Virus record (IMG/VR): IMGVR_UViG_3300003324_000363
Span: 17,571 to 81,570 of that record
Reading direction: 5' to 3' (one strand)
DNA: 64,000 nucleotides
DNA from: a virus
Taxonomy: Duplodnaviria; Heunggongvirae; Uroviricota; Caudoviricetes
The notes beneath the pieces are model-generated. The model saw nothing but the letters and a program-made list of their open reading frames with translations, searched no databases and had not been told where the DNA came from. Below are positions 1,235 to 61,527 of this stretch, one piece after another (positions within the stretch are counted from its first letter, which is position 1; the number at the start of each line of letters is the position of its first letter). A program made the translations under genes and the position numbers.

Positions 1235-1802
1235 ATGTATCTTCACCTGATTTCTTTACCATGTTTATGGCATGTGGCGATGCACTGCCAGACAATACTT
1301 TCTTGGCTGCATCAACATCTGCCTTTATTCTTGCAATAACAAAACTGCCTAACTGATATGTATGGACATTATCATTCAGCTGCATTACTAATTTACGTAA
1401 CTCCATGATTGTATCAATGTCTCGTTCTTCTTTGTTTTTGGTTTCTTCCAAAAGCAAGTCACGTTGAGTATTTTCTAACAGTCTTTCAGCTGTATCTTTT
1501 CTTTCTCTAAAGTCAGTAACAAACCCAAATCTAGCTTGTTCTGACATCCATACATCAGCTGCTTCCTGTGAACGTACAAATTTTAAAATTCTACCATACT
1601 TTGCTTCAGAAACATGTTTGCCAAGCTTGCTTCGTACATAAACCAATGCTGCTTGTATTGGCAAATCAGCACGTTTTGCATCTTTTACAAGTTGGATTAG
1701 ACGAATATTATCAGCCGGCGTATAACGAACAGGTTCTTTACCTTCTTTTGCTGGCTTTATGTCAGCAGGCATAGTAATGCCGGCATCATCAACATTAGAC
1801 AT
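1149..1802 (-). CDS. Putative terminase small subunit or DNA-binding protein immediately upstream of terL. Overlaps the terL start by 86 nt.
   Basis: 217-aa ORF whose position relative to terL matches a small terminase. It has an HTH-like N-terminal region and a coiled-coil middle. I saw no diagnostic motif. Confidence 0.3.
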   Translation of the reverse strand: MSNVDDAGITMPADIKPAKEGKEPVRYTPADNIRLIQLVKDAKRADLPIQAALVYVRSKLGKHVSEAKYGRILKFVRSQEAADVWMSEQARFGFVTDFRERKDTAERLLENTQRDLLLEETKNKEERDIDTIMELRKLVMQLNDNVHTYQLGSFVIARIKADVDAAKKVLSGSASPHAINMVKKSGEDTYVIPTNNTSQGSQQGDIRQESEFTETEF

Positions 1803-1840
1803 CTGTGAAAGAAATGGGAAGTATTAGCTATAAAATAAGT

Positions 1841-2056
1841 TTATGTTGATGGCTTTTGGTGTCCCCAATCATCTTTTCTATCTATTTGCCATGCAACATT
1901 TGTTATATCTTGAGCATCAAGAATAAGTCGTATCATTGCTAATCTTTTTTCAGCCTGTGCTAAGTTAGTAGTGATAAATGACACAGTGACCTTTCTTGAA
2001 TCTCTATTACCTTTAGCCACTGAATTTCTGTTTGGGTTGCTATAGTTTATCACCAT
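1841..2056 (-). CDS. Hypothetical protein, 71 aa
   Basis: ORF packed between neighbouring genes on the same strand. Confidence 0.35.
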   Translation of the reverse strand: MVINYSNPNRNSVAKGNRDSRKVTVSFITTNLAQAEKRLAMIRLILDAQDITNVAWQIDRKDDWGHQKPST

Positions 2057-3171
2057 TAATCTACTCCCCTCTCTTTCAAGTATCTGTCACTCATGTTGCT
2101 TGAATTTAGCTCAAACATGTTTAGCTTGTGTCCCAACAAATCAGGGTCAAAGTGCAATTCATCTTGCTTGTGAATCTTCCAATTGGTGCATACAAAATCC
2201 CATGTGCCTTTTGGGTACATCTTTGTTTGAAGATATGTTGTTATTGGCTTGCCATCTACGTTGTGCTTTCTACATTCTGGGCACTTTATGTCTATGCAGT
2301 TCCATTTCCATGCATCCTGTCTGGTTAATGATAGCAATTCTGTCTTGCTGTTTTCTGACTTTAGAAACTGGGTGCATTTTTTAGTTGTTATATCTGGAAG
2401 ATATTTTATCTTTACAAAGTACTTGGTGCTGAAATGTTTGATTGTAGTCAATGATGTTTTAGCAACAAATGGAAACAGCATAAATGGTAGAATAGCTTGC
2501 CTGCCATCCATGCACTTTTCTGCTGTTTTGTTGATGTTGTAAAACATATCACCTAAAGCTTTGTAATAATCTTGCATATCTTTGTGGTCTTCAAACAATT
2601 CTCCCCAGTTTATTTCAGCATCTTCAGTTTCTCCATTGTCTTTTTCAACTAATTGCTTGTCTTGTTCTAAAACATCACGACATCTTTTTGAAATTTCAAT
2701 AATGTCTGTAAAAAATCTCCAGTATGGATAACGAATGTTATAATACGGTGCGTCTGTTCTGTCCTTGAAGGTATTTAAAGAAACGGAACTATCTAAATCA
2801 CTCTTTTGGAGTGATTTGTCATTTAGTTCTGTTTCAGATGACTCTTCTATAGAACTGTCACTATTATAAACATTGCTATCACCATATGCTCTAGTCCAGC
2901 CATGTTTGGTTGCTACCTTTCTAATCCAACTATCAGCTACAGCCCCAGTTCCTGCATAACCAATTGTTGATGTGAGCTTGACAGCTATTTCTCGTTTTGG
3001 CACACCATCACGTTCAAAAACATCTCCCATAAGCTCAATGAGCTTGACCTTATTTGAAACAGTATCATTCTCCATATCAATTAACTGCTCAAATAGATGT
3101 TGTGCTTCTTGCTTGTTGTCAGCAGACTTTAGAAATCCAAAGTCTGCTTCAATTGCTGTGCTTTCCACCAC
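2056..3171 (-). CDS. Hypothetical protein, 371 aa, with a C-terminal Cys cluster (CPECRKH ... C)
   Basis: Long ORF on the coding strand with a CxxC zinc-finger-like cluster. No recognisable catalytic motif. Confidence 0.55.
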   Translation of the reverse strand: MVESTAIEADFGFLKSADNKQEAQHLFEQLIDMENDTVSNKVKLIELMGDVFERDGVPKREIAVKLTSTIGYAGTGAVADSWIRKVATKHGWTRAYGDSNVYNSDSSIEESSETELNDKSLQKSDLDSSVSLNTFKDRTDAPYYNIRYPYWRFFTDIIEISKRCRDVLEQDKQLVEKDNGETEDAEINWGELFEDHKDMQDYYKALGDMFYNINKTAEKCMDGRQAILPFMLFPFVAKTSLTTIKHFSTKYFVKIKYLPDITTKKCTQFLKSENSKTELLSLTRQDAWKWNCIDIKCPECRKHNVDGKPITTYLQTKMYPKGTWDFVCTNWKIHKQDELHFDPDLLGHKLNMFELNSSNMSDRYLKERGVD

Positions 3172-3221
3172 AATTATTCGGAATCTTTGTTACAGAAGAG
3201 TGAATATAAGCATGTTCCTTT

Positions 3222-3470
3222 TTACAATTCCACGTTTGTTGTATTCCATGTAAGTGTTACTGGAGTGCCGTTGTAATAAGTTTGTAATACCGGCTCCCTA
3301 GGATGCAGCATTTGATCCATAAAGTGAAATATTTTATCAATTGGTTCTTCTGGTTCAGGTGGTGGATATGAAATTGTCGTATAATGAATCCATTGATTAT
3401 ACAAAATTGAATTTGCAGAACTTGTATCGATCCATGTGTTAGTTGCAGCAGAAGTTGTTGAATAAGACAA
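3222..3470 (-). CDS. Hypothetical protein, 82 aa
   Basis: ORF on the coding strand. Confidence 0.35.
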   Translation of the reverse strand: MSYSTTSAATNTWIDTSSANSILYNQWIHYTTISYPPPEPEEPIDKIFHFMDQMLHPREPVLQTYYNGTPVTLTWNTTNVEL

Positions 3471-3506
3471 TGCCTGATAAACAGGCAGGAGAGAATAAAA
3501 ATATTG

Positions 3507-4058
3507 TCATTTCAAGTCATCAATATTGCCAAAATCTTTCATGTTTTGTGGCTCTAGTTGAGCTTCTTCAATAGGTTTAGGGCAACTTGGTTTAAGTTCA
3601 GCAAGAAGTCTTTTCATAAGCCACTCATGCCTGAATTGTACTTTTAATACAGGCAAATTTTTAACATAAGACCACTCAATACGATGTTGTAAATCATGTG
3701 GAATGTTTGCACGAATCCAATCGGCTACATTGACATAAATATTTGGGGATACTTGAATTATAAATGGGTCTAATGGTTCTGGTTCCTCATATCTGACTTC
3801 AGCCTTAGTAGTAAAATCATATGCCGTTAAGCCATAGTCCCAATATTTGTTGTTTGCACGATAATATCTAGTAATGCTACAATAACGGTTTATTGGCGTT
3901 GTTAAAAATTGATGGTATCTTTGCCATGCAACAAACATTGAATCTTCTGTGCCATCATGTACTATAATTTTAGTAGCTCTGTCTATCATTTGATTAGCCC
4001 ATTCATCCAAAGCAGGCGTGCTGCTTGATTTTTTATACGAATTGATTGACATGCCCAA
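3507..4058 (-). CDS. Hypothetical protein, 183 aa
   Basis: ORF on the coding strand with tight spacing. Confidence 0.5.
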   Translation of the reverse strand: MGMSINSYKKSSSTPALDEWANQMIDRATKIIVHDGTEDSMFVAWQRYHQFLTTPINRYCSITRYYRANNKYWDYGLTAYDFTTKAEVRYEEPEPLDPFIIQVSPNIYVNVADWIRANIPHDLQHRIEWSYVKNLPVLKVQFRHEWLMKRLLAELKPSCPKPIEEAQLEPQNMKDFGNIDDLK

Positions 4059-4073
4059 AAAGAAGGGGAGGGA

Positions 4074-5144
4074 TTAGTCAAATCCCATGTTTCGTGAAAT
4101 GCTAGGCTGTATTCCATCTTTTGTTTCCAGTCCTCTACCTCTCTGTCCTGTTAGAATCAGTGCGTGTCCTGATGGAATTGTTTGTACTACTTGCCCATGC
4201 TCTGGATGCTGCAATGTTATTGTACCTTTGCCCTTGTCTGCTGGAATTGCAAGCACATACTGATCTTTCAGAACAGCAAAGTAGCCATCTGTGCCCAGCT
4301 GGTGGTTGCCTAGCTTGATTGTCTTGAACAATCCTTTTTCATAGCTGCTTTCACGAGTGTCTCTAATGAGCTCTGAACTTTGTCCATCACCAAATGGCTT
4401 TTGCAAGTCACGAATGTATAGCTGTGCTCTAGTTGTTGTTTCATCTTCACCAACAACATACTCTGACTTTGAGCCACTCAGTGTCTGTCTCCTACTGCCT
4501 TCATTGACATAATCAATGCGTGCAGTAAAGCCACTTACAGCCTGTCCTAGTATGTCACCCTGCCATCTTGTAGCAAATCCTTCATCTGCTCTGTTTGCCC
4601 AATGCAGAATCTCTTCCATCGTTTTGGTTTTCTCAATTGGCAGTCCTTCAAGCTTGTGGACAAAATACATGCCTTCATCGTTTATGCCGGCTAAGTAGAA
4701 AACACGTGTCAGTTCTTCATACGGCACATCTTTCATGGCTTTCTGTTCTTCAAAATATGGCACTGGCTCAACCTTTGTGTTGGCAATGACTTCAACCTGT
4801 TCATTGCTTGGTCTTTTAGCATCTTTTGAGTTTTCTTTTGTAAAAATGTACTTCCAGTATTCCAGTTGTGTCACTTCTTCTACCTTTCTTGTGCCCTTTC
4901 TCACTTCATATTTCAGCAGCAAAGCATGTTCCCCATCTTCCATGACAACTTCATGATTGGAGTTTGTTATGTCATACTTTGTGCCGTCAGGCAAATCTGT
5001 GCCGTAAAACTTGGGCAGTTCTTCACTTACCTCAAAAAACTTGGTCAGTTCTGCTCCTGTTTCACCTGATACTTTGCCACGTAGCTCGTTTAGCAATTCT
5101 GTGTCCTTCATACCTTTCTTCAGTGCGTATGAAACCTGTTTCAT
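4074..5144 (-). CDS. Hypothetical protein, 356 aa
   Basis: Long ORF. The start codon sits 25 nt downstream of the TATA-like motif at 5169-5187, which suggests a leaderless transcript. Confidence 0.6.
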   Translation of the reverse strand: MKQVSYALKKGMKDTELLNELRGKVSGETGAELTKFFEVSEELPKFYGTDLPDGTKYDITNSNHEVVMEDGEHALLLKYEVRKGTRKVEEVTQLEYWKYIFTKENSKDAKRPSNEQVEVIANTKVEPVPYFEEQKAMKDVPYEELTRVFYLAGINDEGMYFVHKLEGLPIEKTKTMEEILHWANRADEGFATRWQGDILGQAVSGFTARIDYVNEGSRRQTLSGSKSEYVVGEDETTTRAQLYIRDLQKPFGDGQSSELIRDTRESSYEKGLFKTIKLGNHQLGTDGYFAVLKDQYVLAIPADKGKGTITLQHPEHGQVVQTIPSGHALILTGQRGRGLETKDGIQPSISRNMGFD

Positions 5145-5168
5145 TACCTAACAAACGTAAAGTTTAAC

Positions 5169-5187
5169 TATATAAATATATTTAACT
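5169..5187 (-). promoter_or_regulatory. Archaeal-type BRE/TATA promoter motif (TATATAAATATATTTAACT). Copy 1 of seven exact or near-exact copies.
   Basis: On the minus strand the motif contains TTTATATA centred about 26 nt upstream of the ATG at 5144. Exact 19-mers also lie at 23024-23042, 27342-27360, 30195-30213 and 32986-33004. Near-exact copies lie at 18416-18434 and 39721-39740. Confidence 0.5.
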
Positions 5188-5192
5188 ATAGT

Positions 5193-5303
5193 ATGAAGCC
5201 TGAACTATGTAAGCACTGTGAAATGGAGTTTACAACATCGTTCTGTAAAACGTGCAAAAAACCAGTATGCCAAACATGTGCTGTTATTGATTGTGAACTT
5301 TAA
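5193..5303 (+). CDS. Small zinc-ribbon protein, 36 aa (MKPELCKHCEMEFTTSFCKTCKKPVCQTCAVIDCEL). Only candidate on the plus strand.
   Basis: Read directly from the sequence. It has four CxxC pairs and the ATG lies 6 nt after the near-palindromic TATA motif. It may be a shadow of the neighbouring minus-strand gene. Confidence 0.25.
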   Translation: MKPELCKHCEMEFTTSFCKTCKKPVCQTCAVIDCEL

Positions 5304-5413
5304 AACAAATCACTGCAATCACAAAGTGCACCACATTCTTTGCACTTTAGCTCACATGCTTGGACATTTTCCATGATAGCACCACAACGCAGGCATTCAA
5401 ACTTTTCAGCCAT
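5300..5413 (-). CDS. Small zinc-ribbon protein, 37 aa (MAEKFECLRCGAIMENVQACELKCKECGALCDCSDLF)
   Basis: Read from the sequence. CxxC x2. TAATG overlap with the upstream mini-ORF. Confidence 0.4.
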   Translation of the reverse strand: MAEKFECLRCGAIMENVQACELKCKECGALCDCSDLF

Positions 5414-5532
5414 TAGGCACTATCATCTCTATAGCCACATATATTGCAGACACCATCTTCAAAACTGTTGTCTGCATTACATCTTGGGCATGACAGAAGT
5501 ATTTCTTCCATGTGTAATAAATAATATTTCAT
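5413..5532 (-). CDS. Small zinc-ribbon protein, 39 aa (MKYYLLHMEEILLSCPRCNADNSFEDGVCNICGY...)
   Basis: Read from the sequence. CPRC...CNIC pairs. Confidence 0.4.
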   Translation of the reverse strand: MKYYLLHMEEILLSCPRCNADNSFEDGVCNICGYRDDSA

Positions 5533-5548
5533 TGCTTATAAATATTAT

Positions 5549-6658
5549 TTAGCTTACTGTGAAACTGACATTTGGTGTAAATGTCAATGATGTTACTGTT
5601 GAATTCCCTACTTTGTCTGTAGCTTTAACAGTTACAGTATGATTAGCTGTAGATATTGTGGTTGTGAATGTCCACGATGTTGTTCCATTAGCAAGTACAT
5701 ATTGCCCTCCATCTACAGATGCTTCAACTTTTGCCACTCCACTTTCACTGTCTGATGCTGTTCCTGCAAATGTAATTGTTGAACCTGATATGACCTGTCC
5801 TTTTGTTGGGGATGTGATTGTTAAAGTTGGTGCTGTTACATCTGTTGGTGCAGATGTTGTTATTTCTCTTACTGAAACATTCTTGAAGTCATAAGTAGAA
5901 TTGTCTGATCTAAATGATACATAATTGCCTCCCCATGTGATTATTTCATTTTGCTTCATTTCTGTGCCTTTATCACGATTGTATGGAATTGGTGGCTTGG
6001 TTGTGTATAGTCCTTTCAGTTTAGTCATAAATGCAGAAAAGCCACTTGATGCATTCCAGTTTCCTGTATCTGTGTATTCAATGACCTTCTTGAATGTGTT
6101 GTTGTTTGCTACATCAACCCATACTTCCAATTTTGTTTGTGTGTCATTGTTTATGTTGTAGCATATGAATTTCCAAGTTACCCATTTGTTAAGAATGTTG
6201 CCAAGTCCTGAAGCTGTATAGCCAACAGCACTTGCATAGCCAGAATTGTTTGATTCATGATAAAGCTCTTTAATGAAACCAAACGCACCATCAAATCTCA
6301 TTCTTGCTTTATTTGCAGTACCATGCCATGCTTCACTTAAGGTTGTAGAATGTTGCTCTCCACGACAATACATTTGTAAATAAGAGCCAGAGCCTGCATC
6401 AACAAGCTTCATTTGTGCAGTCATCTCAACATTACGCCATGGCTTTGCCCCAGATGGGGTAGTTATAACCCATCGTGGCGTTTCAGATTTGTATATTCTC
6501 CATGAACCATCTGAATTTCTTGTCGTGTTTGAAGGCATTCTGTCAACCATGCCTCCATCTTCTAATTGTGTAAGAGTTGTAGCAGCCATATTGATATAAT
6601 ATTCCCTGCCACCTGTAACAGTAGGATAAATCATTGCTATTCCAAATTTATCATTCAT
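5549..6658 (-). CDS. Putative secreted or structural carbohydrate-binding protein. N-terminal concanavalin-like beta-sandwich (my guess) plus a C-terminal Ig-like Thr/Ser-rich domain.
   Basis: 369 aa. The C-terminal ~90 aa are T/S/V-rich beta repeats (TAPTLTITSPTKGQVISGSTITFAGTASD...) of the kind seen in Big/Ig-like domains. I saw no catalytic motif. Confidence 0.45.
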   Translation of the reverse strand: MNDKFGIAMIYPTVTGGREYYINMAATTLTQLEDGGMVDRMPSNTTRNSDGSWRIYKSETPRWVITTPSGAKPWRNVEMTAQMKLVDAGSGSYLQMYCRGEQHSTTLSEAWHGTANKARMRFDGAFGFIKELYHESNNSGYASAVGYTASGLGNILNKWVTWKFICYNINNDTQTKLEVWVDVANNNTFKKVIEYTDTGNWNASSGFSAFMTKLKGLYTTKPPIPYNRDKGTEMKQNEIITWGGNYVSFRSDNSTYDFKNVSVREITTSAPTDVTAPTLTITSPTKGQVISGSTITFAGTASDSESGVAKVEASVDGGQYVLANGTTSWTFTTTISTANHTVTVKATDKVGNSTVTSLTFTPNVSFTVS

Positions 6659-6702
6659 TTTCTGTTCTTCTAGAACAGTCCCTGCTAAAAAAGGTGTCTA
6701 AA

Positions 6703-13307: not shown

Positions 13308-13440
13308 CTTACTTTATCCTCCTCTTCTCATGCTGTCGTGAATAATCAACTCGTTTGCACTCCAAAAAAGGCATCCTGCTGATTATTGCATCTGTTTCGT
13401 TCATGCTTATCGTGCTTGTCATCACCCTACACTACAGTAA

Positions 13441-13497
13441 CCATATATATAAAATTATTTATGATATTACGTATGAGTATATAAGTGAATATATAAA
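13441..13497 (-). promoter_or_regulatory. Duplicated AT-rich promoter-like element CCATATATATAAAATTATTTATGAT... Second copy at 17815-17873.
   Basis: A 25-nt exact match plus a conserved tail. On the minus strand, TTTATATA sits about 26 nt upstream of an ATG in both copies. Confidence 0.4.
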
Positions 13498-13519
13498 GCC
13501 CGTAAAATACGGGCTTTTC
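13496..13519. terminator. GC stem-loop (AAGCCCG-taaaata-CGGGCTT) followed by TTT. Terminator-like.
   Basis: Seen directly in the sequence. It lies just 3' of the 13524..14207 stop. Confidence 0.35.
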
Positions 13520-17796: not shown

Positions 17797-17891
17797 CAAC
17801 AACCAGTTGTTTTACCATATATATAAAATTATTTATGATTTTTGAATTTAGTATTTAAGTGAGTATATAAATACATTTTACTATATAAAGG

Positions 17892-18388: not shown

Positions 18389-18432
18389 GCTACTATTATT
18401 TTGCCATAAATTTACTATATAAATATATTTAC

Positions 18433-18699
18433 TTATCCGATAAAGAACTCATCGCCACGGTACTTTTCCAGTATGCTGTCTATTGGGGCATTACCTGCAA
18501 ATGTGTTTTCTGTTAATGTTGCACATTTTTCACATGAAAATACAATACATTCTATTTCATTTGTCTTGCCTTGTCTAGCTATCAAAACATGGAATGCCTG
18601 TGTGACATCTTTCAAATGTGAACACATCATAACGTCTTTTACATCATCAATTGGTATTGTTCCTTTTAATTCTGTATCTTTAGTCAGGTCTTCTTCCAT
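18433..18699 (-). CDS. Hypothetical protein, 88 aa
   Basis: ORF. Confidence 0.4.
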   Translation of the reverse strand: MEEDLTKDTELKGTIPIDDVKDVMMCSHLKDVTQAFHVLIARQGKTNEIECIVFSCEKCATLTENTFAGNAPIDSILEKYRGDEFFIG

Positions 18700-22999: not shown

Positions 23000-23042
23000 T
23001 ATACAAAGTATAACCCTGAATTGAGTATATAAATATATTTAA

Positions 23043-23234
23043 CTACTCTATTGTGTATGCCCGCCTTCTAAAATCCTGTCTGTGGGCAAATTTTATAATT
23101 TTGGTGTATTCCTCCCGTAAGGCAAGCAGTTCTTTACTAAGTTGTACTTTATTACCAATGCCGGCATCTATCTTTCCCTGTAGTATGGACATCCTATCTT
23201 GCAGGATGTCTAGCTTGTTAAGCTTCACTGTCAT
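23043..23234 (-). CDS. Hypothetical coiled-coil protein, 63 aa
   Basis: ORF. Confidence 0.4.
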   Translation of the reverse strand: MTVKLNKLDILQDRMSILQGKIDAGIGNKVQLSKELLALREEYTKIIKFAHRQDFRRRAYTIE

Positions 23235-26864: not shown

Positions 26865-27292
26865 AAGCTAGTCCTTCCTTTTCTTGCACCAATCATGAAT
26901 CTCATTACTGGTGATTGATCTATGCCAGCACCATATTTTTGTCCTAGTTGTATGGCTCTTGTTGCTGCTGCTGGGCCGCCTACTGCAAACATTTGCCACA
27001 TCAGCATTTTGATGAACAGTGGCTTGTATGAGTCATTGTCTGATACAAAATGTCGTTGGCAAGATTTGTTTTTACAGATATAGCTTGGTTTTTCACCAGC
27101 TACTGGGTTTCTAACAGTTCTGACATATACCTCATTGCCACCGCAGGATGGACATTTTGGTATTTCTGCTTGCACTTGCTCCTTTACAATGTCTCGAATT
27201 TTGTTGACTTGGTTAAACAAGTCTTCATCAAACTCTCTTGCTGCTTTGCTAAAACGTGGTTTTCTGCGTCTAGTTGCTTGTTCTGTCATCAC
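26861..27292 (-). CDS. Zinc-ribbon DNA-binding-like protein, 143 aa. The first codon is GTG, then ATG.
   Basis: CPSCGGNEVYVRTV...YICKNKSCQRHF. Confidence 0.45.
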   Translation of the reverse strand: MMTEQATRRRKPRFSKAAREFDEDLFNQVNKIRDIVKEQVQAEIPKCPSCGGNEVYVRTVRNPVAGEKPSYICKNKSCQRHFVSDNDSYKPLFIKMLMWQMFAVGGPAAATRAIQLGQKYGAGIDQSPVMRFMIGARKGRTSF

Positions 27293-27358
27293 TCTTTGAT
27301 TGACCTTCCATTTGTCATAGTAAAAGTAACCAAATATTTAGTATATAAATATATTTAA

Positions 27359-27565
27359 CTATGTAGTTTTGATTAACCTAATGTGGGCTTCCAGCTTTTG
27401 TAAATCTGTCATTTCATGCTTATATGTTGCATACACATCTGAGGGCATACCCAAGTGCTGCATACGTTCTATTTGCTCTGCACACCATGATATTTTGAAT
27501 GTGATAAGATTCAATATCATAGCCTTATCTTGTTCAGATAGACCAGATGGCACTATTCCGTCCAT
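27359..27565 (-). CDS. Hypothetical protein, 68 aa
   Basis: ORF. Confidence 0.4.
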   Translation of the reverse strand: MDGIVPSGLSEQDKAMILNLITFKISWCAEQIERMQHLGMPSDVYATYKHEMTDLQKLEAHIRLIKTT

Positions 27566-30185: not shown

Positions 30186-30226
30186 TGTTTTAGTATATAA
30201 ATATATTTAACTTTATAGTTAGAAGA

Positions 30227-32961: not shown

Positions 32962-33152
32962 TATGATTGTTAACTTAGTATTTACTATATAAATATATTT
33001 AACTATCCTATACCATTTTTTGAATAAGTAATTCTGTATATTTCTTTGTTTTTACCATACGTGCAGCACAATGAACACAAACCTGCTCACGTTTATTTTT
33101 AGCTAGGCTTATGACGTGTGTAGCTACATACTTGCAGTGTTTACATTTTTCA

Positions 33153-33665: not shown

Positions 33666-33884
33666 TTACACTCTTACCAACTTTAGTAGCTTGACTGCAC
33701 GTTGTCTGCATCTTTTGTTTCTACCACGTGTTCGTAAGCTGAAATGGCAACATGGACAGTTTCTACCATCCCATGCCAAGAATATTTGGCAGACAGTGCA
33801 TCTTTTGTAGCCATCGGCATAATATCCAGTATGATAGCCTAGCTTTTTTGCTTTGTATCTAACACACAGCCCATTGCATGTCAT
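33666..33884 (-). CDS. Zinc-finger protein, 72 aa
   Basis: CNGLC...CTVC...CPCCH. Confidence 0.45.
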   Translation of the reverse strand: MTCNGLCVRYKAKKLGYHTGYYADGYKRCTVCQIFLAWDGRNCPCCHFSLRTRGRNKRCRQRAVKLLKLVRV

Positions 33885-35317
33885 GCCGTATCTCTCCTTT
33901 TGCTTAGAAATGGTGCTAGACGGTTCTTTGCAATTTGTATATAGTCTTTGTTTAGCTCTATTCCTACAAAATCTCTACCTAGCTTTGATGCAACTAAGCC
34001 AGCTGTACCTGCCCCAAAGAATGGGTCTAGCACAATTCCGGGCTTTGTATTTGCATTTTCACAATCACAATCTGGATAGTATTCTCCTACCTTTCTTATG
34101 ATTGTCTGTCTGAATTTTGACAAGTCTGAATTATGCAATCCTTTATTTGGATCGTCATCTGTACCACTCTTCATTGTTCCTGTATTCTTACCGGGTCTTG
34201 TGTTAACACGTTTTTCTTCCATGTTTCTTATCCATGGCTTGTTACATATTGTGCAAATTTTTATTGGACAGGTTGCCAGAATTGGTGTTACACATAATGC
34301 TTCTGGGAATACTGCCGTATGTTCCATGTGAAATGATTGTGTTGTTATATCCCACACGCATCTTTTGATCCGTCCAAACAGCACCGGTGCCCATGGCTTT
34401 CCAGAGTATGTTGGGTTTCCATACAATGCTGCTTTGTTTCCTCCAAACTTTGGCATTTTCTTTGCGTATGTTCCGTCAATACGCATTCTGTGTGGGTTGT
34501 TTTGTCTGTGTGGCTCTTTACTGTTTGCACCAGTGTTTGCCAATATTGATTTAATGATATTCCTTTTAGCATCTGATGGATTTTGTGCATTTGCTGATTT
34601 GTAATCTTTTGTTGCCTGTCCTTTGTAAGCTTTTTTTATTTCTTCTAATGTTATGGAACTGTATGGCTCATACTGTGTTTCAAAATAATAATCATCGTCC
34701 TTTACAAACCATAAGATGTATTCCCAATCACGTGTAAAGCCACGTTTATCACTCTGAGGCATTGAATTTGGCTTCTTCCAAATTATCTCACGTTTCAGCT
34801 TCCAACCACTAGCTTTCATTCTGAACCCAAGTGCTGCTGGGATTTGTTGCAAATCACCATCTATCATTTTATCACCCATGTTCACCCAGAAACTGCCTGA
34901 CTTTTTCAGCACTCTTCTGATTTCATCAAATATTTGCATCAAATGGTCAAGATACAAACATACTGTTGGTTCTTGCCCTAATTCGCCATACCAACCACCA
35001 CAGTCTAAGCAAGTGCTATATGAAATTTCAGTATCTGGAACTGGTTCTTGTTCACTATATTTCCCACTCTTTTGTGCATCACCACGACCAGAATGCAATT
35101 TTGTTATTTTCTTTGCTTGTGCAATGTGTGGACAATCTTCAAATTCATCCCACCATTGCAAATCTGTATGATAACTACGCATCCTGTAATAAGGCGGACT
35201 TGTTATGCACATGTCTATGGATTCAGATGGCAACTGCTTCAGGATAGCTAAAGAATGTCCTTGATAGATATGATTTCTAATTAAATCTTGATTGCTCTGT
35301 TGTATTTCTTTTTGCAT
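33881..35317 (-). CDS. DNA amino-methyltransferase (beta-class, N4-cytosine or N6-adenine) with a large Cys-containing insertion
   Basis: Motif IV CITSPPYY is N-terminal and motif I LDPFFGAGTAGLVASKLGRDFVGIELNKDY is C-terminal. That is the beta order. SPPY is most typical of N4C MTases. Confidence 0.75.
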   Translation of the reverse strand: MQKEIQQSNQDLIRNHIYQGHSLAILKQLPSESIDMCITSPPYYRMRSYHTDLQWWDEFEDCPHIAQAKKITKLHSGRGDAQKSGKYSEQEPVPDTEISYSTCLDCGGWYGELGQEPTVCLYLDHLMQIFDEIRRVLKKSGSFWVNMGDKMIDGDLQQIPAALGFRMKASGWKLKREIIWKKPNSMPQSDKRGFTRDWEYILWFVKDDDYYFETQYEPYSSITLEEIKKAYKGQATKDYKSANAQNPSDAKRNIIKSILANTGANSKEPHRQNNPHRMRIDGTYAKKMPKFGGNKAALYGNPTYSGKPWAPVLFGRIKRCVWDITTQSFHMEHTAVFPEALCVTPILATCPIKICTICNKPWIRNMEEKRVNTRPGKNTGTMKSGTDDDPNKGLHNSDLSKFRQTIIRKVGEYYPDCDCENANTKPGIVLDPFFGAGTAGLVASKLGRDFVGIELNKDYIQIAKNRLAPFLSKRRDTA

Positions 35318-35709
35318 TGAAATTCAATCTCCTCAATCACACCTTCATCGTCAGAAGCAGTCTCTTGTTTTGCTGATTTGTTAACGAGCCATTCTGTTGG
35401 TAGTCTTCCTGTCATAAGTCCATATTTTTCCCATAGTTGTGAATCACGAAAATCATCTTGTGCCTTAGCTTGTGTTGTTGTATGCCCTACATTGCCATCA
35501 ACTTCTAGCACTAATGTGCTATCAGCTTTCACTGCCAGCACATCAGCAATATATTCAATTTTTTGTACCGTTGGAAAAACATCAGGTACTTCAATTGCCG
35601 GCAGTTTGAATTCTAAAGATACAGACCAGCCTTTTTGCTCTAGAATATTTTTCAGTCGTAGTTTTCCAGTTAAGTGTTGGACACTTTCGCCACCATTGCC
35701 TCCTGCCAT
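35281..35709 (-). CDS. DUF559/Vsr-like PD-(D/E)xK endonuclease-domain protein
   Basis: IADVLAVKADSTLVLEVDGNVGHTT...DDFRD matches the DUF559 core (DF...LVIEVDG..H...D..R). Confidence 0.45.
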   Translation of the reverse strand: MAGGNGGESVQHLTGKLRLKNILEQKGWSVSLEFKLPAIEVPDVFPTVQKIEYIADVLAVKADSTLVLEVDGNVGHTTTQAKAQDDFRDSQLWEKYGLMTGRLPTEWLVNKSAKQETASDDEGVIEEIEFQCKKKYNRAIKI

Positions 35710-35761
35710 CCCACCGTCTTTCAGGAGAAAGCCAAGCTATAAATGTTACTATAGATTTTTA

Positions 35762-36025
35762 CTATACAGTTTTTGTATTAGCATCACTATATGAAACTAT
35801 AAAGCCATCACGTATTACAAGTTTGATCTTGTCTGTCTTTCTTGATAGCAAAAACAATTGTATGAAAGGTGTCAACTTGTTATCGAGAATAGCTTCATTT
35901 GTGGTTGTTGATAGATTGCTTGCAGCCACTGGCTTTAGCAAATCTTGCTTTTCAATAATTTCTTTAAGTTCGGCAATCTCTTCTAACAAGTCTTGACGAC
36001 TTCTCACATCATACGTTTCTGCCAT
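35762..36025 (-). CDS. Hypothetical protein. The track start is GTG, so I adjusted to the ATG (MAETYDV...).
   Basis: ORF. A 23-nt AT motif lies upstream. Confidence 0.35.
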   Translation of the reverse strand: MAETYDVRSRQDLLEEIAELKEIIEKQDLLKPVAASNLSTTTNEAILDNKLTPFIQLFLLSRKTDKIKLVIRDGFIVSYSDANTKTV

Positions 36026-36213
36026 AGATAGACCAATCCAGCTGGCAACTAATATACCCACTGTTACCCTAAAATTTTATATAAAATATCTTATATAAAA
36101 AATTATATATAGGATATTTGCATTGGTCTTTAGGAATAGTAATGAAGAAGCACATTGCCATTCCTGACATCCCAACCAGAGGTGTGGGATATTACTCCTG
36201 CACCTTTGGGTCT

Positions 36214-37026
36214 TTATCTCACGTTTAGCAGAATTTCATTCTCTCTACGTTTGTTGATACGGATTGCACTGCCCCACTTGCTTTGCAATCGTTTTATGCT
36301 TTCCTGCTCAATTTTAGCTGTTCTGTATTGCACAACTCCACCTTTGTTTGTATAATGTGCAAATTCAGCAAAAATATCATTGTTTCGTAATACTCCACCA
36401 TATTTTTGGATATGCTGTAGTGTATAATCATAGTCTTCCTTTGTCTTAAATTCTTCATCAAAGTAAAGTTCATTTGGCAACACCATTATGAAACTAGCTA
36501 TTATGAAGCTGGCAGTGTTGATTAGCTTTTTTGGATCAAAATAAAACAAATTTGTTGTAGGTGCAACACCTGCTAGCTTTATCATATTTTTCGTGTCTTT
36601 CAAACGAGTTCTCATCAATTCTACTGTAGATGCAAATGTTATGTCACATGTTGATTTTGTCAGTGTTTGTCCTTTTCCTAATGCTTCTGATGGTGCATCA
36701 AGCACTGTTGCAAGCTTTAGCTTTTTCAAGTCATCGTCAAGCATAACACATGGTATGTTTAATTTCCAAGCATCCTTTAATGCTTCATTTCTGCTATGGC
36801 ATAGCCCACTTGCAATCTTTATTTCTACATTTTCCAAATCATGCTTTGTGACTTCTGTTGTATAATCTCGAAGGTCTTGCTCATCAGCTACATACCATGT
36901 TGCACCACCATCTATTTTTTCATACATGTCTGCAACATTTTGAGGTCTTCTGTGGCTGACAATTGCTACAAAAGCATCTACATCTTTTCTATGCGTCATC
37001 TTCCTTTTCCTTTGTTCTGTCCTCAA
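36214..37026 (-). CDS. GT-A-fold glycosyltransferase-like protein, a candidate DNA glycosyltransferase
   Basis: An N-terminal beta-strand FVAIVSHRRPQN and a DxD motif CVMLDDD about 95 aa in. This layout is typical of GT2/GT-A enzymes. It sits next to a 2OG-Fe(II) dioxygenase. Confidence 0.45.
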   Translation of the reverse strand: MRTEQRKRKMTHRKDVDAFVAIVSHRRPQNVADMYEKIDGGATWYVADEQDLRDYTTEVTKHDLENVEIKIASGLCHSRNEALKDAWKLNIPCVMLDDDLKKLKLATVLDAPSEALGKGQTLTKSTCDITFASTVELMRTRLKDTKNMIKLAGVAPTTNLFYFDPKKLINTASFIIASFIMVLPNELYFDEEFKTKEDYDYTLQHIQKYGGVLRNNDIFAEFAHYTNKGGVVQYRTAKIEQESIKRLQSKWGSAIRINKRRENEILLNVR

Positions 37027-37969
37027 CTACTTCTTGGTTTATGGCACTTTCATATGGTATAACTTCACCTGCATCTAATCTACGTTTGACATTTTCCCCA
37101 ACTTTTCCAAACATTTTCATGACTTCTGGATTGTGTATGCCTCCCATTTTTGTAAGCTGCAATCTACGTTGTTCACGTTCTGTCTTTCGTTTTCTTATAC
37201 GTATGATTTCTTCATTGACTGTTTGGCATTTCCACATTTGTTTCAATGTATAGTAAACTATGGTGAATCTATAACCTTCTTTGCTAACTATTTTGAAAGG
37301 TGTGACACCATGCAGTATCTTTTGCCCATCAAAAAATAGCAAGCTGTGGTCAGCTATTTCCAATCCTATGTCATATGATGGTATAGAAAGATGCCCTCCC
37401 TTGCAATCTTTCTTGAATGCTACCATGTTGCTGTAAACATCATCAAAATTGCCAGCATCAAAGTGATACTTTAATGGGTTGTTCTTGTTAATGATTCCAG
37501 AAGTAAATGGTGTGCCTTCTATCACCCAATCTTTCTTTACTTTTTCATTTACAATGTCTTCATGTACTTTGAATATTTCTGGAGCATGAACCTTATACAA
37601 CTCTGTGCAAACCTTGCCAAATTCACATACTTCTGTATGAGTTTTTGGGTCTTCTCTTGCCAAGCTTACTGCACTGCAATAGTCTTTACGAATTGTTTCT
37701 CTAGGCATATAACCAAATATTCTGCTTGTTGTCCTAAGTCCCTGTGTTCTAAAATTGTAGCTGTATTTTATTTTAGCAATGTCTTCAACAAGTTCATGAT
37801 GGCTATCTGGCAAATTCAGATAGATTGCAATAAGTCTATCACCATCATAGATTTTGCATGGATAGTCTATGAATTGATGGTAGTCCTCATCAAGTGCCGT
37901 CCGTTTCTTATATTTAGCTAAATCTATTTCTCTATCTGTTACCCGTACTGTTTCAACCGTGTTGCTCAT
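36989..37969 (-). CDS. 2OG-Fe(II) dioxygenase-superfamily protein, possibly TET/JBP-like nucleic-acid base oxygenase
   Basis: HxD at KYHFDAGNF, a second His in ILHGVTP about 50 aa later, and an Arg in GYRFTIVYY about 10 aa after that. This is the spacing of the double-stranded beta-helix iron site. The DNA-modification context fits. Confidence 0.5.
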   Translation of the reverse strand: MSNTVETVRVTDREIDLAKYKKRTALDEDYHQFIDYPCKIYDGDRLIAIYLNLPDSHHELVEDIAKIKYSYNFRTQGLRTTSRIFGYMPRETIRKDYCSAVSLAREDPKTHTEVCEFGKVCTELYKVHAPEIFKVHEDIVNEKVKKDWVIEGTPFTSGIINKNNPLKYHFDAGNFDDVYSNMVAFKKDCKGGHLSIPSYDIGLEIADHSLLFFDGQKILHGVTPFKIVSKEGYRFTIVYYTLKQMWKCQTVNEEIIRIRKRKTEREQRRLQLTKMGGIHNPEVMKMFGKVGENVKRRLDAGEVIPYESAINQEVVEDRTKEKEDDA

Positions 37970-38621: not shown

Positions 38622-38924
38622 TTAAGGCTTGTGAAATACAGTTTCTTGCTCTGCAATTGAATTCAATGTTTCAATTGCCTCTACACCATAGTCTGTTATT
38701 CTCCAGACACCATCAACACATGTAGCCATTTTTTGAGATTTAGCATATTTCAAATATTCTTTGATTTGAGGATGACTTAAACGGGCAGCAAACATGATGT
38801 TTGTCATAAGTATGCCGTTAGCTCCAGAGTTTTTGATATGTTGCAGTACATCACGTAATATTACGTGTCTGCTTCTATATTTTTTCCCCTTATTATTTCT
38901 ACCAATAGATTTAGCATCTGCCAC
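38622..38924 (-). CDS. Winged-helix DNA-binding protein, 100 aa
   Basis: Basic N-terminus, then a recognition-helix-like segment and a wing. Confidence 0.4.
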   Translation of the reverse strand: MADAKSIGRNNKGKKYRSRHVILRDVLQHIKNSGANGILMTNIMFAARLSHPQIKEYLKYAKSQKMATCVDGVWRITDYGVEAIETLNSIAEQETVFHKP

Positions 38925-38981
38925 ATGTTTCCCTACTTTAAAAGTCAGTTAACAAGTAATTAAATATATTTATATAAAATA

Positions 38982-39016
38982 GCTTGTCCGTTATTGCTTC
39001 TAACTAACGGACAAGC
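38982..39016. promoter_or_regulatory. Perfect 12-bp inverted repeat GCTTGTCCGTTA-(11 nt)-TAACGGACAAGC. Candidate operator or terminator between two winged-helix genes.
   Basis: Seen directly. A TATA-like TTTATATAAAATA lies at 38969-38981. Confidence 0.45.
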
Positions 39017-39102
39017 TACACATCACGTCAACAGGTCAGACTGAGAGCCGTGCGTTCCACCGCCAAGAAGCAATAGATAAACTGATTCACTAAAATAAAA
39101 AG

Positions 39103-39381
39103 TTATGGGGACAAATGTATGTTAATTTTTGCCTTCCCATGTGATGTTAGTATGTAAACTGCCTTTATTCTTTCATCTTTGCCTCTTGATGTTACATTTC
39201 TTGGTGGTGGAGCTGCCATGACAGCATTTTCATTGATTAGCTGTTCCAATACTTGTTTTGCTTTTGGCTCGCCAAGTCTAGCTTTCAACATTATGTGGTT
39301 CATATTTACTGCGTCATAGCCTATTGCCGATAAAACAGCAGACACGATTGTTTCAGAATCACGCTTCTTGACCTTTGACAT
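39103..39381 (-). CDS. Winged-helix DNA-binding protein, 92 aa
   Basis: Helix-turn-helix-like ETIVSAVLSAIGYDAVNMNHIMLKARLG. Confidence 0.4.
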   Translation of the reverse strand: MSKVKKRDSETIVSAVLSAIGYDAVNMNHIMLKARLGEPKAKQVLEQLINENAVMAAPPPRNVTSRGKDERIKAVYILTSHGKAKINIHLSP

Positions 39382-39682: not shown

Positions 39683-39771
39683 TTTGACATCCCATATCCA
39701 TTTTTCAGTAGTAAGAGTATTATATAAATATATTTTAGTTAATTCATATTAAGTTTTATATAAAATAGTTT

Positions 39772-45508: not shown

Positions 45509-46001
45509 TACACAAACTATAAACCGGTATTATAAAAATCTACTTTAAGATTTTATATAAAATATCTTATATAGAATTTTTTATATAAAATTCTTTTTCA
45601 TTTTACATTACATTACATTACATTACAAGTACATAGTATAAGTACAGCTAGTAAGTAGTAGAAGTAGTAGTAGAAATGATGGTAGTGTTGTACTTGGAAA
45701 CTGAAATTAAATGTTTATAATTATTAATTAAATGTTAAATAAATAAATCAGAATTGAACGTAAAACAGGTGTTTTAAATTTATTAAACTTTTAATTGTAG
45801 TTTTCAAATTTTCTTTCCAACCCATTTTTTCAAAAGCTCAACAGGAAAACTTAGGCAATTAACGTATTAGAAATCACCGGTAGCAGTGACATGATAGGCA
45901 ATCGTTTTCTGCCACCGGTGATTGATGAGTCACGAAGGGTTGGGTCTATACAGAGGATGTCAGCGTGATAGTAGAAAATACGTTGTCATATAAAAATATA
46001 T
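45509..46001. other. ~490-bp AT-rich non-coding region. Candidate replication origin and/or structured non-coding RNA.
   Basis: No ORF of 60 aa or more on either strand. It contains (ACATT)4 at 45605-45624, an AGT-rich tract at about 45654-45675, and a 10-bp perfect inverted repeat AATCACCGGT / ACCGGTGATT (45872-45881 and 45914-45923) nested inside CCAACCC / GGGTTGG pairing (~45823-45829 and ~45934-45940). It lies next to the replication genes. Confidence 0.45.
45605..45624. repeat. Pentanucleotide microsatellite (ACATT)x4
   Basis: Seen directly. Confidence 0.8.
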
Positions 46002-46265
46002 TTACTTAAGATTGCCTCTACAATATTGGATTACGGTTATAGTATCTAGAACACAGCCATAACAGTAATCGCCATTCAAAGAAATTGGAGCATGGTTGAA
46101 TTTAGGATCGCCAGCCATGCCTACAAATTGAAATACAAAATCAAAATCACGTTTGTCTATTCCTTCTCTATTTAGCATATCTTCCAAGCTTTCTGAAAAA
46201 ATAACAGGATTGCCGTCCTCTTCTGTTCTGTAAATATGATGGACGGCACGTATGTCGTCACTCAC
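46002..46265 (-). CDS. Hypothetical protein, 87 aa
   Basis: ORF. Confidence 0.45.
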   Translation of the reverse strand: MSDDIRAVHHIYRTEEDGNPVIFSESLEDMLNREGIDKRDFDFVFQFVGMAGDPKFNHAPISLNGDYCYGCVLDTITVIQYCRGNLK

Positions 46266-47890: not shown

Positions 47891-47925
47891 CGTAAAAGCC
47901 GGTATATGTTTTTGATACTAAGGAA

Positions 47926-48351
47926 CTATCCTTTGTCTATTTTCTTGTTTATAATATCAAATTGCTTCACATCATCATCTGCATGTGCCTTTACAGTACT
48001 TTCAAGTTTGGTAATTTCTTCACCAACATTTTCCAGCTTCAGCAACACGGTTTCAAAAAATGGTGTTCTACTGGCTAAGGAATTCAATATTTCTTTAATA
48101 TCTAAAGCTGATCTGTCGATGTTTTCTTTGTAGGTTTTCAATACAGCAACATCAGCAGACATCTGTTGTACTTTATCAACAATAGGTTCTGTTGTTTCAA
48201 GATGTTCATTGAGTTTAGTTTCTAATCTATCAATACATTGGAGCTTTATGCTAACTCTTATGACAAAAGCAATCATGATGCCGCCAATAGTTATTATTGT
48301 GCCAAGAATGGCAAGAAGCAAGTTTGGGTCTATTTCAAAGGATGCTGACAT
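47926..48351 (-). CDS. Membrane-anchored coiled-coil protein, 141 aa
   Basis: N-terminal transmembrane helix LLAILGTIITIGGIMIAFVI, then a heptad-rich stretch. Confidence 0.45.
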   Translation of the reverse strand: MSASFEIDPNLLLAILGTIITIGGIMIAFVIRVSIKLQCIDRLETKLNEHLETTEPIVDKVQQMSADVAVLKTYKENIDRSALDIKEILNSLASRTPFFETVLLKLENVGEEITKLESTVKAHADDDVKQFDIINKKIDKG

Positions 48352-48425
48352 AGGATGACACTCCTTATCTTTTGAAGCTTATTATTAGAAATACTTTATA
48401 CCAATATTTGGGAACTCACGATATG

Positions 48426-49223
48426 TTAAACATTTTTGTATATCTGTGTGCCGTCCAGTCTAACTGTAGAAGATACTGCGTTCAAACTGCCATCAGTACC
48501 ATGTTGGTTATAAAATCCAATGTCACAATCACTATTGGCTGCAATCATTGAGGCATCTAAAAATCCATCCCCATTTAACTTTGCAAAACCATTTCCATCC
48601 TGCTTATCATACTCAACCCTTATAGTTAATCCAGCACCTGATTCTATCCAAGTAACCCTATATTTCCACCAAGCTCCTCCCGTTGCTGGCTCACTGGAAG
48701 TACCTACGGTCAATGCTTGTAGAGTTGTGGTAACAGTGTCACCTACATCCCTTTTTGACAATAAAAATCTATGAGTGGCCCCAGAAGCTTCACGTTCTAA
48801 TGTAAGAGCATATCCCACCCATGTATTTGTGCTTCCAGTTAGCCCGGAATTCGTTGATGCCGGAGGTCTAGCATTAAGCCGAAAATAGAACCCATGTACT
48901 AAGTTAGTTGTTGTTGTCTTGTACCAAGTCTCCATCTTACCTGTTTTGAAACCTAAAATATTCCTTCCATTTATCGTTCCAGCAGTTGGGAACCATTTTA
49001 TAACATCAGTGGTGCCACTAGCCACTTCTAAGCATGGTGATGACTGACCTGAAGGGTTGTCTACTTGTTGGGATATGCTCCCACCATGAGTGTTATAGAA
49101 AAAAGTCCAATCAGCAAGTGTCATTAATCCCAGTCCTCTTCTGAAGCTAAAGAGAATGTTGGGTCTGGAGAATTGCCCCAGCCTTCTTCTGTAACAAACT
49201 CTGTGCCAAATATCAATTCCCAT
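48426..49223 (-). CDS. Fiber/receptor-binding family protein. This is the body of a split gene, in a different frame from its N-terminal anchor ORF.
   Basis: Shares the G..G.METW/EVW/EMW beta-sandwich motif family with 49348..50082, 50079..50993, 50999..51646 and 58070..59104. Confidence 0.5.
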   Translation of the reverse strand: MGIDIWHRVCYRRRLGQFSRPNILFSFRRGLGLMTLADWTFFYNTHGGSISQQVDNPSGQSSPCLEVASGTTDVIKWFPTAGTINGRNILGFKTGKMETWYKTTTTNLVHGFYFRLNARPPASTNSGLTGSTNTWVGYALTLEREASGATHRFLLSKRDVGDTVTTTLQALTVGTSSEPATGGAWWKYRVTWIESGAGLTIRVEYDKQDGNGFAKLNGDGFLDASMIAANSDCDIGFYNQHGTDGSLNAVSSTVRLDGTQIYKNV

Positions 49224-49351
49224 CCTTCCTGTGCAACTCCAGTAAATAAGGGATTATCGTTAGAAACAATGCCGCCTACTGTTCTAAACGGCCAGTACTC
49301 TGGGTCTTTGAATCTTTGTGTTGTATTTATATTACGTTTATCTTTTATCAT
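49124..49351 (-). CDS. Conserved N-terminal anchor module of the fiber family (MIKDKRNINTTQRFKDPEYWPFR...). It ends at a stop and overlaps the body ORF by 100 nt.
   Basis: Near-identical N-terminus to 50079..50993 and to the TTG-initiated ORF at 51647-51823. Confidence 0.45.
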   Translation of the reverse strand: MIKDKRNINTTQRFKDPEYWPFRTVGGIVSNDNPLFTGVAQEGWELIFGTEFVTEEGWGNSPDPTFSLASEEDWD

Positions 49352-50993: not shown

Positions 50994-50998
50994 TTATC

Positions 50999-51646: not shown

Positions 51647-51823
51647 TAATTAAACGCCTCATGTACCAATTCTGTAAATGTTGGAAACGCCAAGTTAAAA
51701 GGCTCATAAACAGCAGATGAACCTAGCTGATTTGTAACTTGTTCTCCAGAAAGTGCACGAAACGGCCAATATTCCGGCCACTTGAATCGTTGTCCACGAT
51801 TTATGTGACGTTTGTCACTTGAC
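51647..51823 (-). CDS. Anchor-module ORF (LSSDKRHINRGQRFKWPEYWPFR...EAFN*) with a TTG start. It ends 1 nt into the ATG of 50999..51646 in the -1 frame.
   Basis: Read from the sequence. Homologous to the N-termini of 50079..50993 and 49124..49351. Confidence 0.4.
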
Positions 51824-51825
51824 AA

Positions 51826-53919: not shown

Positions 53920-53921
53920 TT

Positions 53922-55010: not shown

Positions 55011-55198
55011 GGTTTATTTTTACCTACGAGTGCCTCTATAGGAACTATTGCCATCAGCATTTTCAAGTGTCTTTTTGAACTGTTTGTCTTTCTCTAGCCA
55101 TATGTGTATCATGTTTTCAACAACATATGCTGGCTCTGCCAAGTATTCTTCCCATGTAAAACCAGCTGGGAAATACTTCATTTCATAAACCAATATAG

Positions 55199-55534: not shown

Positions 55535-55561
55535 TGAGCATCATTCTACAATAGCTGTATT

Positions 55562-56440: not shown

Positions 56441-56486
56441 ATAATCAGACAGCTAATCGTAATTCAATCCATAAAAGTAAGAACTA

Positions 56487-56882: not shown

Positions 56883-56883
56883 T

Positions 56884-57411: not shown

Positions 57412-57414
57412 TGT

Positions 57415-58068: not shown

Positions 58069-58069
58069 T

Positions 58070-59104: not shown

Positions 59105-59147
59105 TATTGCACACTTTGTTTGCTATGTAAATAGAAATGAAGTATTG

Positions 59148-61511: not shown

Positions 61512-61527
61512 TTCAGTTTACCTGCTT

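Follow-up and report, generated by a model that had tools for sequence, protein, structure and literature searches.

A repeated 19-nucleotide sequence as a probable virus-specific core promoter in an uncultivated, apparently archaeal virus

Background

Repeated consensus promoters are already established in archaeal viruses, and the element that we report here, which changes no concept in this respect, is best read against them. The intergenic repeats of the tailed archaeal virus HF2, of classes I and II, are all promoter-active and are conserved in sequence and position within the genus (Haloferacalesvirus), and the class II repeats among them keep about half of their activity when reversed (PMC8707807). 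In rudiviruses and other viruses of the Sulfolobales, a regulatory sequence particular to the virus is common to the early genes; it has a strong transcription factor B recognition element (BRE) and TATA box and is also found before the gene of the winged helix-turn-helix (wHTH) protein Aca8, and in SMV2 inverted repeats lie over the BRE (PMC11065993). The element considered here is a 19-nucleotide (nt) sequence, AGTTAAATATATTTATATA on the gene strand and TATATAAATATATTTAACT on the plus strand, that recurs in a 64,000-nt stretch of the IMG/VR virus record IMGVR_UViG_3300003324_000363 (positions 17,571 to 81,570 of that record; the whole stretch is referred to below as the window). We propose that this 19-mer is very probably a virus-specific consensus core promoter, composed of a BRE and a TATA box, for operon-first genes with leaderless or near-leaderless mRNAs, and we infer its promoter activity, transcription start position and temporal class from the sequence. 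As a predicted promoter, it joins the known class of repeated archaeal-virus promoters, differing in sequence, length and virus lineage, and in having an inverted copy at a regulator gene.

Results and discussion

Recurrence of the 19-mer upstream of genes

A mismatch-tolerant search for the 19-mer across the 64-kb window, with 100 dinucleotide shuffles as the null model, found 10 copies with at most three mismatches (five exact and five with one to three mismatches), against 0.10 expected and a maximum of 1 in the shuffles. A position weight matrix scan gave 12 matches, against 0.1 in Markov simulations, and among sequences of 12 nt or longer the 19-mer alone has at least five exact copies in the window. 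Two class-B variants (TCATAAATAATTTTATATA, at 13446 and 17820) have a 16-nt core, TAAATAWWTTTATATA, in common with the 19-mer. The 12 members of the family, with the open reading frames (ORFs; lengths in amino acids, aa) that follow them, are listed below.

5169 to 5187, minus strand: exact copy; a 24-nt spacer, then ATG 5144 of a 356-aa ORF
13446 to 13464, minus strand: second class-B variant; 23 nt to ATG 13422 of a 37-aa ORF
17820 to 17838, minus strand: class-B variant TCATAAATAATTTTATATA, which carries TAAATAWWTTTATATA; 23 nt to ATG 17796
17864 to 17882, minus strand: copy with two mismatches, in tandem 25 nt upstream of the class-B variant; no start codon at leaderless distance
18416 to 18434, minus strand: copy with two mismatches, AAGTAAATATATTTATATA; 27 nt to TTG 18388; the TAA of the preceding gene abuts the motif
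23026 to 23044, minus strand: exact copy; 26 nt to ATG 22999 of a 133-aa ORF that opens a long overlapping operon; the preceding ORF ends in a TAG (23045-23043) that overlaps the first two bases of the motif
27342 to 27360, minus strand: exact copy; 23 nt to ATG 27318 of a nine-codon mini-ORF, MTNGRSIKE; the TAG of the preceding gene overlaps the motif
30194 to 30212, minus strand: exact copy upstream of the RadA/Rad51 gene, with an in-frame TTG (30170) at 23 nt
32986 to 33004, minus strand: exact copy; 24 nt to ATG 32961 of a 68-aa ORF that heads an operon with an SPFH/Band7 gene
38958 to 38976, plus strand: inverted copy with one mismatch, between a terminator-like hairpin and an HTH_45 wHTH gene
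39721 to 39739, minus strand: copy with two mismatches upstream of the SWIM zinc-finger gene, whose annotated ATG (39682) is 38 nt away
45989 to 46007, minus strand: copy with three mismatches, on the upstream border of the repeat-rich, non-coding region of 493 nt that precedes the MCM operon; no ORF follows for about 480 nt, and the TAA of the preceding gene lies inside the motif

An earlier note on this DNA had described an exact 19-mer repeated upstream of at least seven genes, and the repetition is borne out, the ten copies together being far above chance. Its coordinates were right for the exact copies at 5169, 27342 and 32986, and off by 2 nt and 1 nt for the other two (given as 23024 and 30195, where the copies begin at 23026 and 30194); the near-exact copies that it placed at 18416 and 39721 are indeed present (18416-18434 and 39721-39739), with two mismatches each, and its list lacked the copies at 17864-17882 and 45989-46007 and the inverted one at 38958-38976.

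All 12 members are intergenic, as had been claimed for the copies then known, save for coding overlaps of 2-6 nt at 18416, 23026, 27342 and 45989, four sites at which the stop codon of the preceding gene lies inside the motif or abuts it. The search placed no copies within coding bodies. The intergenic spacers that carry it measure about 41-46 nt and are thus just promoter-sized. Apart from the inverted copy, all 19-mer copies (nine of ten) and both class-B variants run in the same direction as the genes, all credible ones of which lie on the minus strand, many overlapping by 1-4 nt. Conservation among the copies covers the 19 nt and about five weaker bases on the 3' side, with unrelated flanks; beyond the core BRE/TATA it takes in a 5' flank, AGTT, and a weaker 3' flank, (C/G)T(A/C)AA, and these 19-24 nt of identity are more than a basal promoter needs.

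The regions around the two class-B variants (13440-13500 and 17815-17890) are paralogous promoter regions, each with three tandem TATA-like boxes, in the order CTTTATATA, TATTTATATACTCA and TCATAAATAATTTTATATATATGG, of which the last lies 23 nt before an ATG in both.

Predicted promoter architecture

The last eight bases of the motif, TTTATATA, are an exact match to the archaeal TATA consensus TTTAWATA (PMC11065993). In 11 of the 12 family members the motif ends in this octamer on its 3' side (at 45989 TTTTTATA takes its place), and all 23 of its occurrences on both strands of the window are non-coding, compared with 42% for A/T-only 8-mers. The distances from motif to start cluster at 23-27 nt in eight of the 12 members (24, 26, 23, 23, 24, 27, 23 and 23 nt from box to start codon). 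For the four starts that the note had named, the distances are 24 (5144), 26 (22999), 24 (32961) and 27 nt (18388), which agrees with its claim except that 18388 is a TTG and not an ATG. The TATA box is centred approximately 27 nt upstream of the transcription start in archaea (PMC5316973) and begins at -26 in HF2 (PMC8707807); combined with such distances, spacers of 23-27 nt would place initiation on the start codon or no more than about 3 nt away from it.

Translation signals separate these first genes from the others. A Shine-Dalgarno motif is found at none of the eight promoter-proximal starts (six ATG and two TTG, the latter at 18388 and 30170), compared with 32 of 63 operon-internal genes (51%) and 9.5% of random positions. 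Leaderless first genes together with Shine-Dalgarno-led internal genes are the classic archaeal arrangement.

In the mechanism that we envisage, TBP, TFB and RNA polymerase of the host would read the 19-mer as the consensus core promoter of a tailed-virus-like archaeal virus, with TTTATATA as the TATA box and the A/T-rich TAAATAWW directly upstream of it in the BRE position. Transcription would start approximately 23-27 nt past the box, at or within a few nt of the first start codon of the operon; the first genes would be translated from leaderless or near-leaderless mRNAs, and the downstream genes of each operon through Shine-Dalgarno sites. The copies would head about ten transcription units, non-structural in content (small ORFs, RadA, the SWIM and wHTH genes, and the edge of the replication module). 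The TATA match, the spacing, the lack of Shine-Dalgarno motifs and the gene content all support the earlier proposal of a BRE/TATA promoter on leaderless mRNAs.

Several observations weigh against this reading. The two putative leaderless TTG starts sit poorly with leaderless starts in T. onnurineus, 94.9% of which are AUG (PMC5316973); the copies at 17864, 39721 and 45989 have no start codon at 23-27 nt; and most sites have A or G just ahead of the ATG, in place of the usual pyrimidine at -1. The BRE position holds AAATATA in the 19-mer and AATAAT in class B; both are A-rich, as the earlier note had it, but with A mixed with T and not clearly purine-rich as in the textbook element, and the BRE consensus of the host may differ. 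An alternative register is possible, in which GTTAAA would be the BRE and TATATTTA the TATA box, with a start about 6 nt upstream of the ATG; we prefer TTTATATA as the TATA box because the class-B variants alter the upstream part yet keep TTTATATA and the 23-nt spacing. Neither TBP nor TFB was seen in the window, and to our knowledge neither is expected in a virus. An averaged profile of TTTATATA matches around all predicted starts was too noisy, with crude gene calls misplacing starts.

Individual starts are of several kinds. The mini-ORF behind the 27342 copy (27289-27318) ends in a TGA that overlaps ATG 27289 of a 142-aa zinc-ribbon ORF (TGATG); because of this overlap, the mini-ORF suggests a leaderless upstream ORF coupled to the zinc-ribbon gene by termination-reinitiation. 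For RadA/Rad51, TTG codons at 30185 and 30182 are alternatives to 30170, and alignment of RadA N termini did not single out one TTG as the start. The SWIM gene would not be leaderless as annotated, because its ATG lies 38 nt from the motif.

Gene content and relatives of the virus

The window encodes MCM, the primase large subunit PriL, a family-B DNA polymerase (PolB) and RadA/Rad51, and also two HTH_45 winged-helix proteins, a SWIM protein and ParB-N, with a weak tail-tube match. The MCM, PriL, PolB, RadA and HTH_45 genes favor the archaeal-type transcription that the earlier note took the motif to imply.

A megablast search with 20 kb against GenBank phages returned no match, and matches to the MCM among GenBank phage and virus records were to archaeal viruses only (21-26% identity). 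No relative was found by an MCM-profile scan of IMG/VR, and a scan of JGI metagenome contigs gave nothing better than an MCM of 26% identity. An exact 19-mer scan of IMG/VR returned 14 contigs with one copy each and no relative; we take these single copies to be chance occurrences in AT-rich DNA. The relatives found were a few Logan contigs only, reached through protein look-ups. The closest, L015, is 51% identical in MCM and 64% in PolB, and L016 is 39% identical in MCM; the distant PolB relatives (L025-L030) have PCNA, Hjc, MCM and Prim-Pol, with TrmB in the wider group of relatives. In species genomes, RadA matches reached 36-37% at best. The sequence appears to belong to a virus of an archaeon, of a new lineage, with a contig of approximately 100 kb (a 99.7-kb JGI contig) and all genes on one strand.

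Conservation in the closest relative

The core of the motif, TTAAATATATTTAYAT, has five copies in L015, against 0.04 expected, with spacers of 25, 24, 27, 28 and 32 nt to start codons. Two of the L015 sites are syntenic with sites in the window, one before the HTH_45 gene (inverted in both genomes) and one on the upstream border of the non-coding region that precedes the MCM operon, and the SWIM gene is preceded by a family member in both (the 39721 copy in the window and a class-B variant at 11462 in L015). The core was not found in L016, L025, L027 or L028, and L029 and L030 have no comparably repeated 12-mer.

The non-coding region of 493 nt (45509-46001) lies upstream of the MCM-PriL-PolB operon and has its L015 counterpart at 5621-6089. 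It contains (TTACA)x5 at 45603-45627, tandem repeats of 14 nt and 11 nt, and AT-rich tracts, and it is a candidate replication origin. About 65 nt past the 45989 copy is a stable hairpin (45873-45922; z = -2.8), and L015 has the same layout of motif, hairpin with T-run (z = -3.1) and GTAATAC repeats. The putative promoter at 45989 could give rise to a short non-coding RNA.

Comparison with described promoters

Like the HF2 repeats, the 19-mer copies are short intergenic repeats of a tailed archaeal virus that unite an AT-rich TATA box and a putative BRE, are found nowhere else, are conserved in position, and head long operons; the reverse activity of the HF2 class II repeats is relevant to the inverted copy found here. 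The HF2 repeats are 29-58 bp long, with downstream blocks that include the initiation region, whereas conservation of the 19-mer spans 19-24 nt and ends just after the TATA box. The two have no sequence similarity and belong to different virus lineages and hosts, and the HF2 promoters are backed by reporter assays, primer extension and mutagenesis, whereas the 19-mer is a predicted promoter.

With the SIRV2, SIFV and SMV2 sequences the 19-mer shares a strong TTTAWATA core, here with a putative BRE, set within a conserved sequence particular to the virus, and a repeated position before many small unknown genes and before a wHTH gene, here that of a candidate regulator. Those are rod-shaped, filamentous or spindle-shaped crenarchaeal viruses in which the sequences serve mostly single genes; the present virus is tailed-virus-like with multi-gene operons, and its 19-mer also precedes RadA and a replication-region element, with the copy before the wHTH gene inverted. 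The wHTH protein here is of the HTH_45 type. The Sulfolobales sequences belong to early genes; for the 19-mer an early or middle class is predicted.

Cellular promoters of T. onnurineus and Haloferax volcanii (PMC5316973, PMC4983044) similarly have an 8-bp A/T TATA box centred approximately 27 nt upstream of the start and an A-rich BRE upstream of it, and with them, as is predicted here, first genes are leaderless with ATG starts and Shine-Dalgarno motifs are found elsewhere. Cellular promoters are degenerate, whereas copies of the 19-mer agree in up to 19 consecutive bases, and two of the putative starts here are TTG.

Palindrome, inverted copy and candidate regulator

The earlier note had called the motif nearly palindromic, and its core TAAATATATTTA is in fact a perfect 12-nt palindrome. 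At a site with a 24-nt spacer, TAAATATATTTA would lie at about -40 to -29, over the BRE and half of the TATA box; in the class-B variants it is broken (TAAATAATTTTA). The chance probability of a 12-nt palindrome in pure A/T sequence, about 1/64, counts against giving it much weight by itself, so the idea of an operator rests mainly on context, that is, on the surroundings of the inverted copy:

38622 to 38924, minus strand: HTH_45 winged-helix gene, candidate for the regulator; the inverted copy lies before it
38981 to 39017: hairpin with a 13-bp stem (AGCTTGTCCGTTA / TAACGGACAAGCT), then ATTTTAT on the gene strand; terminator-like and directly upstream of the inverted copy
39103 to 39381, minus strand: a further HTH_45-like gene, the weaker of the two, within the operon that the 39721 copy heads

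At 38958 the entire 19-mer is truly inverted, and the strong TATA end of this copy points away from the wHTH gene. Upstream of the orthologous HTH_45 gene of L015 (40% identity) there are likewise hairpins and an inverted copy, the latter 28 nt from the ATG, and this arrangement, conserved at the wHTH gene in both genomes, suggests regulation. In one reading the wHTH protein would bind the palindrome, in keeping with what has been proposed for Aca8 and for the inverted repeats that lie over the BRE in SMV2; in another, the motif would have bidirectional promoter activity, as measured for the HF2 class II repeats. From its strong TATA end, the inverted copy would drive antisense transcription into the SWIM/wHTH operon, and the wHTH gene would be transcribed from a weak reverse box (TTTAATTA in the window and TTTAAGTA in L015). 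That TAAATATATTTA is an overlapping operator for a virus-encoded dimeric regulator, for which the adjacent HTH_45 protein is the obvious candidate, is a tentative proposal that we regard as possible, if on balance doubtful. Rather unlikely, in our judgment, is the fuller scheme of a promoter-operator switch, in which the HTH_45 protein would shut off or time about ten promoters and a convergent-promoter circuit with the inverted copy would control the temporal program.

Alternative explanations

The operator idea has a stronger form, in which the motif is primarily a site where a dimeric regulator (for example, the HTH_45 wHTH protein) binds TAAATATATTTA and the TATA-like part is incidental or partial. 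The perfect palindrome, an identity over 19-24 nt that exceeds the need of a basal promoter, the inverted copy that precedes the wHTH gene in the window as in L015, and the precedents of Aca8 and the SMV2 inverted repeats over the BRE (PMC11065993) are all in its favor. An operator alone would leave the fixed spacing of 23-27 nt and the exact TATA consensus unexplained, however, and the class-B variants break the palindrome (TAAATAATTTTA) but retain TTTATATA and the 23-nt spacing. Binding by the wHTH protein is conjectural. The homologue search with it returned nothing but the protein itself, sequence searches against the PDB were uninformative, and its single-sequence AlphaFold model (predicted local distance difference test score, pLDDT, of 52) was too poor and was left unused for fold search. 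We consider a primary operator improbable, and what it proposes is largely compatible with the core promoter that we favor, as a promoter with an overlapping operator.

Two further explanations dispense with archaeal initiation or with promoter function altogether. The plus-strand form TATATAAATATATTTAACT contains the octamer TATAAATA, the T4 late-promoter consensus, a resemblance that is superficial, and internal genes have Shine-Dalgarno motifs as in phage; one could accordingly see in the motif a bacterial-phage-type promoter, with either a sigma-70 -10 element or the T4-late sequence on its plus strand. We judge this to be extremely improbable, since TATAAATA lies on the strand opposite every gene, the copies have no -35/-10 pair, sigma-70-like sites number 71 against 67 expected and none of those in the sense direction falls on a copy, no Shine-Dalgarno motif precedes the starts behind the motif, and the replication and recombination genes are of archaeal/eukaryal type, with MCM matches to archaeal viruses only; both the sigma-70 and the T4-late reading were rejected on strand, lack of enrichment and gene content, which is not T4-like. 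It is only slightly less far-fetched that the 19-mer has no promoter function and is a dispersed repeat spread by recombination, a miniature mobile element, a replication iteron, a packaging site or a terminator. The identity of five copies could come from recent copying or gene conversion, and the 45989 copy is next to an origin-like repeat region, but conservation ends within about 5 nt of the 19-mer on either side, which leaves no larger duplicated unit and no terminal repeats; across 40 kb the copies are invariably sense-oriented and directly ahead of genes, which does not fit an origin or packaging site; L015, with MCM and PolB only 51-64% identical in protein sequence, carries the core at syntenic sites; and the motif contains no hairpin or T-run and is therefore not a terminator.

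Other elements and temporal class

Structural genes (47-64 kb and 1-7 kb) are separated by gaps of 27-50 nt that carry TAGTTC, ATACTTC or AACTTC at 37-46 nt upstream of the start and then, at 22-29 nt upstream, a weak T-rich box (TTTTAT). On the gene strand, six of the 11 TAGTTC occurrences are at 37-46 nt (47928, 55047, 56486, 56921, 60661 and 62546). Because the 19-mer serves non-structural genes and the structural genes carry this different element, the 19-mer most likely marks one temporal class, early or middle. The form TAGTTCT(CT) / ATACTTCT recurs before late genes in L016, L027, L028 and L030, and the TAGTTC element may be a late-promoter or intercistronic signal shared across the virus group. 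Its TAG is often the stop codon of the preceding gene (47900-63300 and 1800-6700), and in the distant relatives the late genes bearing TAGTTCT(CT) / ATACTTCT have no obvious TATA box. A third A/T-rich element, TATATAAGATATTTTATATAAAAT(T/C)TTA, is found at approximately 36076-36100 and 45552-45590, upstream of the methyltransferase operon and the MCM operon, and contains two overlapping TTTATATA boxes.

The earlier note had also pointed to a plus-strand mini-ORF at 5193. This ORF exists, but its link to the motif is unsupported, because only 5 nt separate its ATG from the motif, which is too short a distance for a TATA role. It encodes 36 aa (MKPELCKHCEMEFTTSFCKTCKKPVCQTCAVIDCEL; 5193-5303, plus strand) with three CxxC pairs and would be the sole plus-strand gene candidate in the window, with an ambiguous codon score; minus-strand zinc-ribbon mini-ORFs of 32 and 37 aa adjoin it (5310-5510), in a stretch that the gene caller left non-coding. 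The plus-strand ORFs at 23053 and 27369, which begin shortly after motif copies, were considered as divergent genes and rejected for their negative coding scores.

A DNA-modification module spans 33881-37969:

33881 to 35317: N6/N4 DNA methyltransferase
36214 to 37026: TET-associated glycosyltransferase
36989 to 37969: TET/JBP 2OG-Fe dioxygenase

This module suggests hypermodified (glycosylated hydroxymethyl) bases in an archaeal virus. In the window no tRNA gene was found and an Rfam scan matched no family; L015 has four consecutive tRNA-Leu genes at 1579-1918 (anticodons CAA, GAG, TAG and TAA).

Conclusion

When its host is known, the 19-mer could become useful as a strong promoter to be moved between constructs. 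For the virus, it offers a predicted transcription map of an uncultivated archaeal virus of approximately 100 kb without close relatives, with about 12 suggested operon starts and a likely early or middle class distinct from the late one, and it would be evidence for a host in which first genes have leaderless initiation and internal genes Shine-Dalgarno sites. By the logic of the Sulfolobales viruses (PMC11065993), the small unknown genes behind the motif may be regarded as candidates for host-takeover or anti-defense functions.

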